Source: a virus. Taken from it: DNA of 64,000 nucleotides. The stretch covers positions 1 through 64,000 of the IMG/VR virus record IMGVR_UViG_3300045988_135589; one strand, 5' to 3'. Made by a program: the position numbers and the translations under genes. Shown here in pieces: positions 1-11,017 of this stretch (positions are counted from its first letter, which is position 1; each line of letters begins with the position of its first letter). The notes beneath the pieces are model-generated. The model was not told where the DNA came from, made no database searches, and saw only the letters and a list, made by a program, of their open reading frames with translations.

Positions 1-260
1 GTAATAAACAGAGGAAATGGAAAGACCGGAGTATAATAAGCTACGCAAAATGGCTAAGACTACTCCAGGTCTGATAGTGGACGAGGCGCAAAACATGATG
101 CGTGTATCGCTATACGATAATGGAGAACTTAAGAAGGTGGTAGTAGTAATGAAATGCGATTCTTTTTTACAGTCAAAAAGTAACATAGAAAAGATAATGT
201 TATTATCATCTTCTATAGAAGATAGAAAAAACAAAGAAAAAAATAAAACAAAATCAGAAA

Positions 261-644
261 ATGAACAGAATAACAAAAATAAGAGAAGAAATAGGAGGAA
301 AACAGGTTGATTTAGCCTTTTACGGGCGCTTTTGCAGCCTTATCGAAGGTGACAGAAAGATAATACTAAGGGCAATAAAAAACGGTCGTAAGAAGGGCGT
401 AATCGGAGCCATTCAGCCTGGGAGACATGACAGAATTTGGACCACATGGTCTATCGCTTTTGATGATCTAAAGGTAGGGGATACGGTAGAGTTTAGTACA
501 TCTGGAAAATACAATCCCGGATTTCATGCTACGGAAAAGTATGTAGGGTGTGTAGAATGGATAAAAGGGTCAGAATGTGCGATAAAAACCGGTAAGGGAA
601 TAGCAGTAGTATTAATTAAACACGTAGAAAGGGTGGTAAAATAA
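261..644 (+). CDS. hypothetical protein (127 aa)
   Basis: Clean ORF with an AGGAGG-like purine-rich tract upstream. It is translationally coupled to the next ORF (ATGG overlap at 641-644). The overlapping ORF 17..310 is low-complexity (K/N-rich) and may be only partly real. Confidence 0.5.
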   Translation: MNRITKIREEIGGKQVDLAFYGRFCSLIEGDRKIILRAIKNGRKKGVIGAIQPGRHDRIWTTWSIAFDDLKVGDTVEFSTSGKYNPGFHATEKYVGCVEWIKGSECAIKTGKGIAVVLIKHVERVVK

Positions 645-925
645 TGGATTTAAGGATGTTTATAGACCTATTTCAGGAGATTGAGGTAGAGAACTTGTTT
701 AAAGCGTTAGATTTATGTATGGAATATGTAAGATTAGATTTACATGTGTTTAATGTAGGAGCTTATGTAATGTGTTCATACAGTAATGATCTTGAATCTC
801 TTTCACAGGCAGAAGGTTGTAATGTGAATATGATAATAGAGGTACCCTACTTATTCGAAGCATTCATGGAATATGCTTCACCGGAAATGAAGTTGTATTA
901 TGAAAAACTAACAGAGATAGTATAA
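644..925 (+). CDS. hypothetical protein (93 aa)
   Basis: ORF packed in an operon-like arrangement. Its start overlaps the previous stop. Confidence 0.45.
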   Translation: MDLRMFIDLFQEIEVENLFKALDLCMEYVRLDLHVFNVGAYVMCSYSNDLESLSQAEGCNVNMIIEVPYLFEAFMEYASPEMKLYYEKLTEIV

Positions 926-926
926 T

Positions 927-1400
927 ATGAAAGAAGAAGTAGAACGGATAAAGAAGTTGGTAGGCATAGATCATAACAGATGGGAGCAACCTTGTACATG
1001 TGATAAATGCAAGAACATGTGTAAGGTTCCTTGTATTGGTGTGCCAAAAGACATAGAGGCTATCATAGATGCCGGATACGCTGACAGGTTAAAAGAAACA
1101 ATGTGGATGGTAGGGTGTCTTGCAGTGGGAGAAAAACCAATAGCGATGATCCAGCCAACAGGGAAAGAAGGGTGGTGCGCATTCCGCCGGCCAGACGGTC
1201 TCTGCGAGCTGCATGACCGTGGACTAAAGCCGACCGAAGGAGTTCTGGCTTCTTGTAAGATGGTTGAAGAAGACAATGTTCCAACATATGAAACGTCTGT
1301 ACTTAGAGCAGTAGCTCATGAGTGGGTTAAGGTGGAGAACTTCGCAACTATAATGAGAGTCGTTTTTAAATACTTGCATGAAAATGAACGTGGAAAATAA
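927..1400 (+). CDS. Cys-rich hypothetical protein (157 aa)
   Basis: ORF with several Cys clusters (CTCDKCKNMCKVPC; GWCAFRRPDGLCELH). It is probably a metal-binding protein. A GC-rich non-coding island follows it. Confidence 0.55.
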   Translation: MKEEVERIKKLVGIDHNRWEQPCTCDKCKNMCKVPCIGVPKDIEAIIDAGYADRLKETMWMVGCLAVGEKPIAMIQPTGKEGWCAFRRPDGLCELHDRGLKPTEGVLASCKMVEEDNVPTYETSVLRAVAHEWVKVENFATIMRVVFKYLHENERGK

Positions 1401-1973
1401 ATTAGATAAAGTAGTTAAGATCCTAAAAGAAAAAGGATTTGTAGTATATAGAAAGGGCGGGAAGGAGCCAGGGTAAGGCGGCGCTTGCCCTGCCATGAGG
1501 TCGGTCCGCCTGTTTGTGGCCAGGGTCGCATATTAGTCAGATAGTGACGGACGCCACAGGAGACAGGTGGTTGACATACTCCCACGCCTAAAGGCAGTGG
1601 GATTCTTGGATACAAGCGCAAGAAACCCCGATATTACTATCGCTGGAATTACCCATACTCTCCAATTCGGAAATGCCCTTCCGAAGTATATTACGGGCTG
1701 CAAGAACATCACGGTCGTTGACCGCGCCGCACGACGGGCATACCCACGTGCGGTCGCGTAACGACAGACCTTTATTAATGCAGCCACATTCACAAGTTTT
1801 GGAAGAAGGATACCATTTGTCAATCTTGTGTTTGGAAGCAGCAGAAGGTTATCCGGTAGATGTAGATTTGGAAACACAAGGGTTTTACCGTTGTAATGAC
1901 GCAGGAACACTTCCCGGAGAGTGTGCAGATTTTATTTTTCATAAGTGTAATGATTAAATTGAAATAATCAAGT

Positions 1974-2300: not shown

Positions 2301-3362
2301 ATGAACAATTCAATGGTCGCTCACTTGTGGGCTCATGAACAAGAAGAATCAGCATCAGGGAGCAATTTCTTCTTTGAAGGTGCAAGTATTTATTCTTATG
2401 GGCATCACTTTGAAGTCGGGAGAATAGTAAAAAACAAACAAGGGAAGAAAGCATACCTGATAAATGAAGATTATTATTCTGTTACCACGAGCAAACATCA
2501 ATGCTATGTTCGTAATGCGATACCAACTTGGGCAATGGTTTTCAGTGTAGGGGATAATATATCGGATACTGGTAATATGAGGTTTGTTGCCAGCAAACTG
2601 GAATCAATTAAGAAGTCTATTGAAAAATACAAAAGAGCTAAAACAGAATTATCTTATACAGATATTTGGGGCGCTTTTGAGAATATGATGGATTACATTC
2701 AGTTCTTTAACATGGGGACTGCTAAGAGTATCCTTAAAAAGAGTGCTAATGATTGGCTTGGAACCAATCATGAATTATCCAAGAGCGGAGATAGTATCAA
2801 GCGTAAGCACGTACATGAATTAAAACGCATCTTTCAAATTTTATTGGATCATCAAGGATTAAAAGTGTTAGGGACCGTAAATGTGATTGTTGATGAAGTT
2901 TGCGGGGAAGGTACATGGATTAAGTATTCAGAAAGATCTGAAAGATGGAGAAAGGGTGAGGAAGAAAGAGAAAGAATAAAATTAGAGAGATTAAGAAAGG
3001 AAGAAGAAGCCCGTTACAAGGATTTTGATGAAAAACTGGAAGAGTGGAAGTCGGGAGAAATCAATTTCTTGAATACACCTTTCTATATTCCTGGTGAAAA
3101 ACCTAACGCCTGGATTCGTATAAAAGGAAATATTATTGAGACAAGTAAACAGATAAAGATTGGAATAGCAGAAGCCAGAAAACTGTGGCGGGCTGTGTCG
3201 GCAATGCACCGGGGCGCCGAGTTTCGGCACGGTCTGGTGGAGGACATCACCGGTCACCAGTGGAGTCTAAATCGGTACGAAAACGATTTGCTAACCGCTG
3301 GATGTCATAGGATAGCATATAGCGAAATGGAGAGAATAGCAAAACAACTGGGATGGGTTTAA
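2301..3362 (+). CDS. hypothetical protein with central charged coiled-coil (353 aa)
   Basis: Long ORF with an E/R/K-rich heptad-like segment (ERWRKGEEERERIKLERLRKEEEARY). It contains a local GC-rich patch near 3180-3290. Confidence 0.6.
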   Translation: MNNSMVAHLWAHEQEESASGSNFFFEGASIYSYGHHFEVGRIVKNKQGKKAYLINEDYYSVTTSKHQCYVRNAIPTWAMVFSVGDNISDTGNMRFVASKLESIKKSIEKYKRAKTELSYTDIWGAFENMMDYIQFFNMGTAKSILKKSANDWLGTNHELSKSGDSIKRKHVHELKRIFQILLDHQGLKVLGTVNVIVDEVCGEGTWIKYSERSERWRKGEEERERIKLERLRKEEEARYKDFDEKLEEWKSGEINFLNTPFYIPGEKPNAWIRIKGNIIETSKQIKIGIAEARKLWRAVSAMHRGAEFRHGLVEDITGHQWSLNRYENDLLTAGCHRIAYSEMERIAKQLGWV

Positions 3363-6399: not shown

Positions 6400-6552
6400 A
6401 AAATCATGAGGTATGTATGTGTTTTTATCTGCTTTCTGTTATGGCTTATTTTTACGTTGCTATTATCATTCACTGTCATAGGATTGGTTATAAGCGTGAG
6501 TGATGAATGGCAGGAAATGGGTGATAAAATAATAGATAAACTTTAAAAATAA

Positions 6553-6837
6553 TTGAGCATGAGTAAATATACAGCAAAACAAATTGCCGAGTCCGATGAT
6601 CTGTTTGATAAGCAAATACATAAAGTCAGAAAGTTTTATTTGAGTCGTAATCCTGATAAAATGATGATGCTCGAAGAAAGAAAAGCTGTTATCAAAGAAC
6701 GAAATAAAGGTCTTTCCCCAGAATATGATAAGGAATATTATTGCGGAACCTGCGGAGCTAAAGACGGTGCGGAGCATCCTAAAACCGGATATTGCTTTCA
6801 CTGTGATACGGATAACTGGATTCCAAAAAATGACTAA
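6553..6837 (+). CDS. hypothetical Cys-containing protein (94 aa)
   Basis: ORF preceded by a TAAAAATAATTGAG motif. It carries a C-terminal CGTCG...CFHC cluster. Confidence 0.5.
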   Translation: MSMSKYTAKQIAESDDLFDKQIHKVRKFYLSRNPDKMMMLEERKAVIKERNKGLSPEYDKEYYCGTCGAKDGAEHPKTGYCFHCDTDNWIPKND

Positions 6838-9544: not shown

Positions 9545-9790
9545 ATGCATAATAGCCAAAAGCTATTCCGATTATTAGCCTAAGTGTTGAAACAAACACT
9601 ACGTTATTTAAGAATAGATAGTTACCTGCGGATGTTTGCCCAAGTCTGTAGCTCTAAGGTAAGTGATTAAACAGTTCTGGTATTCAGGAACAGTGTTGCT
9701 TACAAAAAAACCTCTTATAACATTGGCGATGGGTACTAACAGAGTTTCACTCTGACTTATGTTGAATAGACATTAAAAACGTTTGTAGAT
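9545..9790 (+). ncRNA. Putative omega-RNA (IscB guide RNA) comprising a 5' guide-like segment plus a structured scaffold
   Basis: A roughly 460-bp non-coding region lies immediately 5' of iscB on the same strand. The scaffold part, about 9572-9745, has a near-copy at 22494-22671 with compensatory stem changes. The first hairpin is GTGTT-GAAACA-AACAC here versus GCCTT-GAAACAG-AGGC in copy 2. Just upstream is a promoter-like 15-mer, TTTGTATCGTATTAT (9532-9546). Confidence 0.55.
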
Positions 9791-11017
9791 ATGGTGTACG
9801 TACAGGACATAAATGGTAAACCTATGATGCCCACAACAAGGCATGGTAAGGTAAGACGACTGCTTAAAGACAAGAAGGCAGTCGTTGTGAACCTATGTCC
9901 GTTTACCATCAAATTAATGTACGTAACATCTGATTACAAACAGGAAATTGTGTTAGGCGTTGATGCTGGTACTAAACATGTTGGTTTATCGGCTACAACG
10001 AAAAGCAAAGAACTTTACAGCAGTGAAGTTATTCTTAGAAATGATATTGTAGATCTTTTGTCTACCAGAAGGGAGCTACGAAGATCAAGACGAAATAGAT
10101 TGAGATATAGAAAACCTCGTTTTGATAATAGAATAAAAAGTAAGCGTCCGGGATGGGTAGCACCTTCGGTGAAATACAAAGTAGACGCCCATATTCATAT
10201 TATTGACAATGTATGTTCTATATTACCAATATCTCGTATTGTTATCGAAGTAGCTCAATTTGATACTCAAAAGATTAACAATCCTAATATATCAGGTAAA
10301 GAATATCAGGAGGGTGATCAACTTGGATTTTGGAACGTTAGGGAATATGTTTTAGCAAGAGATGGACATAAATGCCAGTATTGTAAAGGAAAGTCAAAAG
10401 ACCCAGTATTGAATGTTCATCATCTTGAGTCTCGAAAAACCGGAGGCGATTCCCCATCTAATCTTATTACCTTATGTGAAACTTGTCATAAAGAATACCA
10501 TAAAGGTAATATAGATTTGAAGATCAAACGGGGATCGTCGCCTCGCGACGCAGCCGTAATGGGAATAATGAAATGGAGATTGTATGAAGAACTAAAATCT
10601 AAATACGACAACATTTCTATGACTTTCGGTTATGTTACAAAATACAATAGGATTAAACATGGTATTGAAAAATCTCATGTTTTCGATGCATTTGTTATTT
10701 CTAAAAACTTTGATGCTATAAGGTTAGGTTATTATTATAAAGTAAGATTAGTAAGAAGACATAATCGTCAGATCCATAAACAAAAGATTCCAAAAGGAGG
10801 GATAAAAAGACCAAATCAATCTCCTTTTGAAGTTTTTGGTTTCCGATTGTTTGATAGGGTTATGTTTGAAAACAGTTATTACTTTATATTTGCAAGGCGT
10901 AAAACCGGTAGTTTTAATATTCGAGATATTGATGGTAAAAAACAAAGAGATATTACATACAAGAAATTGAAATTATCAAGGTGTAAACGCTTTATGGTGC
11001 AAAAGGAAATGGATTGA
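9791..11017 (+). CDS. iscB: IscB-like RNA-guided nuclease (OMEGA; RuvC-HNH, Cas9 ancestor family), 408 aa
   Basis: The N-terminus carries a PLMP-like motif (KPMMPTTRHGKVRRLL). The RuvC-I motif is GVDAGTKHVGLSA. An arginine-rich bridge helix follows (RRELRRSRRNRLRYRKPRF). RuvC-II carries a Glu (IVIEVAQFD). The HNH motif is CQYC...NVHHLESRK...SNLITLCETCHKEYH. RuvC-III is H-x-x-DA (SHVFDAFVIS). All catalytic residues are present. Confidence 0.85.
   Translation: MVYVQDINGKPMMPTTRHGKVRRLLKDKKAVVVNLCPFTIKLMYVTSDYKQEIVLGVDAGTKHVGLSATTKSKELYSSEVILRNDIVDLLSTRRELRRSRRNRLRYRKPRFDNRIKSKRPGWVAPSVKYKVDAHIHIIDNVCSILPISRIVIEVAQFDTQKINNPNISGKEYQEGDQLGFWNVREYVLARDGHKCQYCKGKSKDPVLNVHHLESRKTGGDSPSNLITLCETCHKEYHKGNIDLKIKRGSSPRDAAVMGIMKWRLYEELKSKYDNISMTFGYVTKYNRIKHGIEKSHVFDAFVISKNFDAIRLGYYYKVRLVRRHNRQIHKQKIPKGGIKRPNQSPFEVFGFRLFDRVMFENSYYFIFARRKTGSFNIRDIDGKKQRDITYKKLKLSRCKRFMVQKEMD

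Follow-up and report, generated by a model that had tools for sequence, protein, structure and literature searches.

The window analysed here is a 64,000-nt stretch, positions 1 to 64,000 of the IMG/VR virus record IMGVR_UViG_3300045988_135589, and is an AT-rich phage sequence with a mean G+C content of 38%. Between two small genes near its start, at about positions 1401 to 1973, lies a GC-rich island that is a patchwork of unrelated pieces (Table 1). On the minus strand are found 261 bp from the right end of an insertion sequence (IS) of the IS200/IS605 family, comprising the 3' end of its tnpB gene and an overlapping, predicted omegaRNA. On the plus strand, which is the gene direction in this part of the window according to the list of open reading frames (ORFs), are found remnants of small phage genes and a GC-rich hairpin. 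It is highly probable that the island as a whole is the right-end stump of a TnpB/omegaRNA (OMEGA) element together with phage hairpin and gene debris, and that it is a relic. Over its first 4 kb the window shares about 87% identity with csAssE-Sib, a 151-kb phage of the human gut (OR575929.1), and its source appears to be a relative of this phage, a human-gut phage of the 150-kb class, about 90 kb of which lies beyond the window. Relatives of the 157-aa protein encoded just upstream of the island are found on at least 182 IMG/VR stretches, mostly gut-phage contigs of 80 to 158 kb, and 80 IMG/VR relatives were compared with the window. A literature search on the phage name csAssE returned nothing relevant.

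The right end of the element is placed at 1570/1571, because loci with different flanks share their sequence from position 1571 onward. This boundary is common to most of 25 aligned loci bearing about ten different flanks, the common sequence beginning exactly at 1571 (TTGACATACTCCCAC.. on the plus strand); the exceptions are L052, which differs at the first base, and L057, which differs in the first ~13 nt. At the other side the stump breaks off at 1831/1832, where locus L097 reads ..CAATCTTGTGT/ACTATCACTCC.. into the remaining tnpB and the window continues with TTGGAAGCAGCAGAAGG.., the last third of a ~84-aa gene in L025, L077 and csAssE-Sib. L097 is the one human-gut contig found by a metagenome scan to have the identical right-end junction (96.6% identical), and its tnpB runs past the break point of the window at least to residue 104, where the contig ends. 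It represents the unbroken, progenitor state of the insertion. The upstream context in L097 is another than in the window. The end of the L097 contig (8900-8954) is Illumina Nextera adapter (CTGTCTCTTATACACATCTCCGAGCCCACGAGAC), so its last bases are not biological. Exact-junction scans of IMG/VR with both junctions of the window returned no contig. A transposon boundary at 1472/1473, where homology to csAssE-Sib ends, was considered and rejected, as the 80 IMG/VR relatives show 1473-1570 to be phage DNA. Window positions 1-1472 are conserved at 92-97% in relatives.

The assignment of the stump to this family is carried by its protein remnant. The minus-strand translation ..HKIDKWYPSSKTCECGCINKGLSLRDRTWVCPSCGAVNDRDVLAARNILRKGISELES..ESHCL* is the C terminus of a TnpB, matches Pfam PF07282 (Cas12f1-like_TNB) with E = 2.4e-14, and is 77.5% identical (tblastn) to the C terminus of the L002 TnpB, which belongs to a complete IS element on gut-phage scaffold MT839900.1. 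On the NCBIfam model guided_TnpB (NF040570) the fragment covers profile positions 338-389 only, the last 52, and scores 62 bits, under the cut-off of 100 bits; its full-length relatives, 379 aa long with HTH_OrfB_IS605, OrfB_IS605 and TNB domains, score 239 bits. The nearest solved natural protein to these full-length relatives is ISDra2 TnpB (phmmer, E = 3e-30, residues 11-352). The window keeps 80 of the 379 codons, the first ~299 being missing, and its tnpB is thus a family member by descent but not an intact gene. The tnpB stop lies 17 nt inside the right end. The stump lacks a left end and tnpA, and its tnpB begins only at His-Lys-Ile-Asp-Lys-Trp. Within the 64-kb window, tblastn found neither a tnpA nor another tnpB of the same family, and a left end with its subterminal hairpin is absent from the window, a phage gene fragment occupying the sequence 5' of the stump. 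Relatives do carry a left end, which in the full element is a hairpin region of ~90 nt, and a TnpA (NF033573, 143 bits); a divergent Y1 tnpA is present in one subgroup of the relatives, and the subfamily of the window's phage clade is entirely without tnpA. Two otherwise full-length tnpB genes are interrupted in related loci: in L036 (6146-7285, minus strand) a TGA replaces the conserved Trp codon (KIDK*YPSS), and in L052 (2140-3279, minus strand) the gene is divided into ORFs of 139 and 227 aa. These could be pseudogenes, assembly errors or cases of stop-codon recoding.

Comparison of copies further shows a structured RNA at the right end. Conservation within the element is strongest over its final 115 nt, and holds there even at a TnpB identity of only 58%. 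The predicted layout of these 115 nt comprises a hairpin P1, a long-range UUGGA/UCCAA helix that closes off both a 7-bp helix and a hairpin with a tetraloop, and, ahead of ..GGGAGUAUGUCAA, a terminal hairpin. RNAalifold returned five helices from 67 unique copies on gut-phage contigs. Among 24 diverse copies, 96.1% of the cells are paired across the 34 pairs of five helices, against 36-51% when the partners are slid; compensatory changes occur in 12 of the pairs, and the covariation score was reached by none of 500 shuffles. One hairpin of the scaffold alternates between GUAA, GAAA and UUCG tetraloops on different stems. Since single-sequence folding does not distinguish the omegaRNA from shuffles (z = -0.98), its structure rests on covariation and not on energy. 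On this comparative basis, 1571-1685 can be taken as a TnpB omegaRNA that overlaps the end of the ORF and finishes at the right end of the element, as would be expected. The copy in the window has its own peculiarities. No other variant among the 67 has its U-U mismatch at pair 43-77 together with two wobble pairs in the 7-bp helix (helix 3), and this helix is of mixed type, with a 5' strand (GUAUGGG) from one subfamily and a 3' strand (UCUUGC) from another. A scan of the minus strand for sigma-70-like promoters found none; it is uninformative, since the promoter type of the host may differ from sigma-70.

The flank of the right end supplies the predicted guide. The DNA at 1540-1570 is the source from which the omegaRNA guide is copied, and this flank (reading CCACCTGTCTCCTGTGGCGTCC.. 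on the minus strand) is the start of a conserved small phage ORF or module, ..TDATGDRW/VKCEE... The 31-mer is uninterrupted in 17 loci, where it runs on as ..GGTGG/GTAAAGTGCGAAGAG.., and a 41-aa ORF in L057 covers the interrupted module. An 18-nt target is uninterrupted in 21 places among the fetched loci: 14 directly after TTTAC or TCTAC, three with TTTAC one base farther upstream, and four with CTTTC. In relatives the site is written TTTAC-CCACCTGTCTCC.. or TTTAC-CCACCTGTCTCCTGTGGCGT, and at the window's own locus GTCAA occupies the position of the motif. A similar picture is obtained for the family, in which the left ends of nine full copies adjoin TTAC and those of tnpA-less subfamilies adjoin TTAT or TTAC. 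Among 130 copies we find 65 distinct 18-nt flanks, and empty sites exist in other loci for 33 of these 65 insertion sites, with TTAY directly before the guide match in 29 of the 33. The family inserts 3' of TTAY and does not duplicate its target, the empty site consisting of motif plus guide match. As the intact target of the window's copy is mostly accompanied by T(T/C)TAC, fitting the TTAY of the family, the original event is consistent with a normal insertion of this family, and 1570 to 1551 is predicted to be the guide.

Table 1. Features of the GC-rich island, followed by RNA-guided nuclease features elsewhere in the window
Feature	Position	Strand	Basis or remark
5' fragment of a small phage gene, 32 codons (MKMNVENKLDKVVKILKEKGFVVYRKGGKEPG) ending at a stop that the adjoining segment supplies	1378-1476	+	136 aa in relatives
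Left deletion junction	1451-1472	.	Imperfect ~20-nt repeat, GGGCGGGAAGGAGCCAGG vs GGGCGGAACAGCCAGG
Conserved GC-rich (61%) phage element, imperfect long hairpin (candidate RNA)	1473-1539	+	Directly after the stop of a 65-aa ORF (..GYREWVEQPE*) in relatives
First codons of conserved small phage ORF or C-terminal module (..IVTDATGDRW/VKCEE..), cut by the insertion	1540-1570	+	31-mer intact in relatives
Predicted omegaRNA guide, 5'-CCACCUGUCUCCUGUGGCGU-3'	1551-1570	-	Flank immediately 3' of the transposon right end
Predicted omegaRNA scaffold core, 115 nt	1685 to 1571	-	Covariation among copies
5'-truncated IS200/IS605-family element, right end only	1571-1831	-	83-97% identity to full-length elements in L002, L003, L036, L052, L083-L097
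tnpB pseudogene fragment, final 80 codons (HKIDKWYPSSKTCECGCINKGLSLRDRTWVCPSCGAVNDRDVLAARNILRKG..ESHCL), stop 1590-1588	1588-1830	-	Spans zinc ribbon and last RuvC motif
3' fragment of ~84-aa phage gene, 41 codons plus stop (LEAAEGYPVDVDLETQGFYRCNDAGTLPGECADFIFHKCND*), 5' half deleted	1832-1957	+	Homology
HEARO omegaRNA	9549-9740	+	Rfam RF02033, 107.8 bits
IscB, 408 aa	9791-11017	+	Pfam RRXRR and HNH; NCBIfam guided_IscB, 359.8 bits
Second HEARO RNA	22423-22667	+	95.2 bits; ~80% identical to the first over 177 nt

The surroundings of the stump are best understood from the relatives. The 157-aa ORF at 927-1400 is a whole gene, which stops at the same point in relatives and is annotated in csAssE-Sib as a Lys_methyl_FliB superfamily protein. 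Downstream of it (about 1400-2000 in the window, 1.5-5 kb in homologous regions) relatives L003-L082 hold varied sets of small genes, which are joined at short shared motifs (GCCAG(G/A)GTAAGG, GATAGTGA), and a conserved C-terminal module (..TDATGDRWVKCEE..EHFKNR) recurs behind several different N-terminal portions. The region is a cassette-shuffling hot spot of the phage clade. The small gene of which the window keeps the first 32 codons has full 136-aa homologues in L057, L070 and L052, and each of the 12 relatives that were compared (L001, ten IMG/VR loci and L097) loses its homology to the window at 1472. The ~20-nt repeat at this junction occurs at codon ~30 of the 136-aa gene and again at the end of the 65-aa ORF, all DNA between the two copies being gone from the window; in L034 and L010, window positions 1451-1553 are matched at a second place ~1.3-1.7 kb downstream. 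On the far side of the stump, 1832-1957 is 96-100% identical to the end of the csAssE-Sib coding sequence WOZ57388.1 and to L025 and L077, which have ..TGLTDEECEEIQRF ahead of it.

The hairpin at 1473-1539 was compared in 30 variants from 62 copies (61 fetched loci and the window; the L070 copy lies at 6545-6610). RNAalifold gives -20.6 kcal/mol on the plus strand and -8.3 on the minus strand, with changes that are mostly one-sided and little true covariation; single-sequence folding of 1473-1570 gives z = -2.16, and Rfam has no match for the hairpin. Because the covariation search gave mainly one-sided changes, its status stays that of a candidate functional RNA.

With these pieces in place, the enrichment that marks out the island can be accounted for. 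At a GC fraction of 0.56, positions 1451-1750 rank highest among all 300-nt stretches of the 64 kb, ~3.8 standard deviations above the mean (mean 0.380, standard deviation 0.047), and the 200-nt profile stays at 0.48-0.51 over 1401 to 1900. The original prediction, which placed the GC-rich island at 1440-1960, was right about this enrichment but drew it too wide: GC is 61% in 1473-1539, 61% in 1540-1570 and 49% in 1571-1830, whereas 1378-1472 (34%) and 1832-1957 (39%) are both normal for the genome of the window. The enrichment has two unrelated sources, the IS remnant and the phage hairpin. It had also been proposed that GC enrichment shared by homologous coding sequence would speak against an intron or noncoding RNA, and this applies to part of the island only, the 3' end of tnpB in full-length copies being as GC-rich as the fragment in the window. 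Two more local GC peaks (0.50-0.52) lie on the plus strand at 1101-1300 and 3101-3300, within ORFs 927-1400 and 2301-3362.

The same earlier reading had taken the island for a noncoding RNA or a self-splicing intron, citing stable stems and suggesting that ORF 927-1400 and frame 1673-1957 could be two exons of one gene. A structured RNA is indeed encoded in the island, but on the strand opposite to that considered and over 1571-1685 only, where the conserved helices lie. The stem that was quoted, found as CCGCACG...CGTGCGG at 1726-1752, receives no support from comparison, its two inner pairs being lost uncompensated in about a third of 68 homologous copies; its bases belong to codons of the TnpB zinc ribbon (R-T-W-V-C-P-S-C-G), and conservation of these codons is therefore its best explanation. 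As for splicing, a group I or group II intron, or an IStron, inside one phage gene, with 927-1400 (or 1378-1472) and 1673-1957 as its exons, could explain why a GC-rich, structured segment stands between coding pieces in differing frames. To our knowledge, IStrons are the only known class that would unite the intron idea with tnpB. IStrons of Clostridia combine a group I intron with tnpB and omegaRNA (PMC13521648). In the present case, however, a search of 1200-2200 against Rfam at E <= 10 returned no group I, group II or other family, nothing but an 11.5-bit chance match; the whole-window scan placed no family at gathering score within the island region and no intron model at threshold anywhere in the window, and L090, L003 and L097 (related element copies, two of them full length) likewise gave no family at gathering score. 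The left end of the full element is its ~90-nt hairpin region and holds no intron core. The supposed exons are on one side the complete 157-aa gene and on the other antisense tnpB fused to 41 codons of another gene; the flanks are parts of three different genes, and in 12 relatives they are 1.3-3.4 kb of other small genes apart and never joined. The tnpB and omegaRNA are antisense to the phage genes that are interrupted and therefore could not splice from a plus-strand mRNA. On sequence grounds the intron was accordingly rejected, for want of a core, for its antisense orientation and for flanks from different genes, and we give it practically no chance of being correct.

It could also be speculated that the island encodes a real small protein, either the 94-aa plus-strand ORF 1673-1957 or the 125-aa minus-strand ORF 1533-1910. 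Both frames are open and have start codons, and the 94-aa ORF ends in a conserved phage peptide of 41 residues. The earlier judgement that no convincing ORF is present holds nevertheless, because the 94-aa frame is a chimera and the 125-aa frame is out of frame with tnpB. The former has no Pfam match, its first 53 codons are antisense to tnpB and its junction peptide reads ..HLSILCLEAAEGYP..; the latter uses the wrong tnpB frame and spans the transposon boundary, and neither junction is found in IMG/VR. A similar frame is open in intact elements (L002, L090), so the antisense frame is a by-product of the codon structure of tnpB. A small protein is for these reasons very improbable, if somewhat less so than an intron.

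The stump belongs to a family that is widespread in these phages. IMG/VR yields at least 120 matches to it; the copies that were analysed occupy 65 distinct sites, and some contigs carry two. Derivatives consisting of the omegaRNA only (~115-120 nt) are found at four or more independent gut-phage sites, all cut near TnpB residue ~346-348 (L107/L112/L119; L129, L141, L172, L175 and L183; L198; L004, L005, L025, L054 and L056). In L107, L112 and L119 a left end (TTAC/GATATTCCGTAAAGCCCCTGC..) lies ~95 nt upstream of the omegaRNA, forming a mini-element of ~210 nt, and L198 is at the same site as the full-length copies L121 and L127. In a collection of species-representative genomes the TnpB query had a sole match, L098 (JBGVNX010000030.1, a metagenome-assembled genome of Candidatus Cryptobacteroides sp.), at 56% identity, which gives a weak hint that the hosts of these phages are Bacteroidales.

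A possible history of the locus can be put forward. A full element would have inserted 3' of TTTAC within the small conserved phage ORF (..TDATGDRW^VKCEE..). An illegitimate deletion may then have removed the left end, most of tnpB and adjacent phage DNA, which would have brought tnpB codon ~300 up against the 41 terminal codons of a different small gene at 1831/1832, and a second, repeat-mediated deletion at 1472/1473 may have taken away what lay between codon 32 of the 136-aa gene and the GC-rich hairpin. Transposition in this family needs the element ends and a transposase, and the nuclease needs an intact tnpB. Lacking a left end, a transposase gene and an intact tnpB, the stump can neither transpose nor make its own nuclease, and it would act only if it were transcribed and loaded by a TnpB from another copy.

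That it does so, as a working orphan guide RNA supplied with TnpB in trans by a further copy in the phage or its host, is the alternative that deserves most weight. The resulting complex would cut co-infecting related phages at the uninterrupted TTTAC-CCACCTGTCTCC.. and so favour the stump allele through RNA-guided homing or marker exclusion. This would be in keeping with the complete scaffold, with the target being kept in the 21 places described above and with the protection of the window's own locus, where GTCAA replaces the motif. The differing upstream contexts in L097 and the window are likewise what homing or recombination would be expected to leave, and the family, at its 65 or more gut-phage sites, with two copies on several contigs and copies elsewhere in at least 13 relatives, recurrently gives rise to omegaRNA-only derivatives; trans-acting, PATE-like omegaRNA-only elements have already been proposed (PMC10055086). 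Yet no TnpB of this family is found in the 64-kb window, no promoter was found, and the tnpB promoter and the mRNA that TnpB normally processes into omegaRNA are deleted. The U-U mismatch and two wobble pairs in helix 3 are seen in only the window copy among the 67 variants, and the break falls inside tnpB and not at the tidy omegaRNA boundary of the recurrent solo elements. The exact junctions occur in no IMG/VR contig, and therefore the allele has not visibly spread. Taking both sides together, we regard a working guide as unlikely, though far less remote than an intron or a small protein.

We therefore favour the stump as most likely an inert, decaying relic, because the promoter region of tnpB is lost and no promoter is evident, because its helix 3 has become weaker and because IMG/VR shows no instance of the allele. 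Several observations nevertheless weigh against complete inertness. The scaffold is complete, with only a 4-nt patch separating it from the nearest intact relative, L097, and the reading frame of the tnpB fragment has stayed open. Copies of the omegaRNA motif of the element occur elsewhere in the genomes of at least 13 of the 80 relatives, most with full-length tnpB, so that a TnpB could be supplied in trans from the ~90 kb beyond the window. The order and mechanism of the two deletions are, moreover, reconstructed and not observed. For the identity of the stump as the remainder of a TnpB/omegaRNA element, no contradicting evidence was found.

The window also carries an apparently intact IscB OMEGA unit at 9549-11017 (plus strand), composed of a HEARO omegaRNA and an IscB gene (Table 1). 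A second HEARO RNA has no IscB beside it, and tblastn found no second IscB in the window; the next large ORF after it, at 23131-24150, encodes a PD-(D/E)XK nuclease. This second HEARO is a solo IscB guide RNA that could in principle be used by the IscB at 9791.

When placed beside known systems, the stump is a mobile-element relic of an ordinary kind, and the kind of element is already known. The motif of ISDra2 is TTGAT, whereas that of the family described here is TTAY. The ISDra2 TnpB-omegaRNA of Deinococcus radiodurans (PDB 8bf8, 8exa, 8h1j) is of the same TnpB family as the full-length relatives and has the same organization, with an omegaRNA that overlaps the 3' end of tnpB and finishes at the right end, a guide taken from the flank and a short motif 5' of the target. 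The present family differs in a scaffold core of only ~115 nt and a stop 17 nt from the right end, and the window copy differs further in lacking tnpA, a left end and the ~299 codons with which tnpB begins. IS608 of Helicobacter pylori, also of the IS200/IS605 family, has a Y1 TnpA and inserts 3' of TTAC (PMC10055086); the family described here resembles it in inserting 3' of TTAC or TTAT with no duplication of the target, in the subterminal hairpins of its two ends and, for the autonomous subgroup, in having a Y1 TnpA, but tnpA and tnpB are divergent in the autonomous relatives, the subfamily of the window's phage clade has no tnpA, and the hosts are gut phages. The PATE-like, omegaRNA-only, non-autonomous IS200/IS605 elements of Meers et al., which would need a TnpB in trans (PMC10055086), are matched exactly in type by L107, L112 and L119, in which a left end is joined to the omegaRNA with no protein gene. 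The window copy, in contrast, is a deletion stump without a left end that keeps 80 tnpB codons, and not a mobilisable mini-element. If its guide were used, the stump would resemble the free-standing homing endonucleases of T-even phages (Seg, Mob), which act in marker exclusion (reviewed in PMC13565253), in that it would cut insert-free related phages in a hyper-variable gene-cassette region. Recognition would here depend on an RNA guide and a TTAY motif and not on a protein.

For annotation, the speculation about an intron or noncoding RNA can be replaced by a precise map that places a fragment of a tnpB pseudogene, the omegaRNA with its guide, a phage hairpin and pieces of two genes. The omegaRNA family is missing from Rfam 15, and the alignment made here could supply it. 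More broadly, a single TnpB/omegaRNA family that uses a TTAY motif has spread to at least 65 sites in a clade of large human-gut phages, mostly without tnpA and repeatedly leaving omegaRNA-only derivatives. Since sister phages hold intact sites that the guides match, the clade is well suited to testing TnpB-driven homing or competition between phages. Should the guide of the stump prove to be used in trans, the recurrent ~115-nt solo omegaRNAs and the solo HEARO of the window would exemplify the same strategy.

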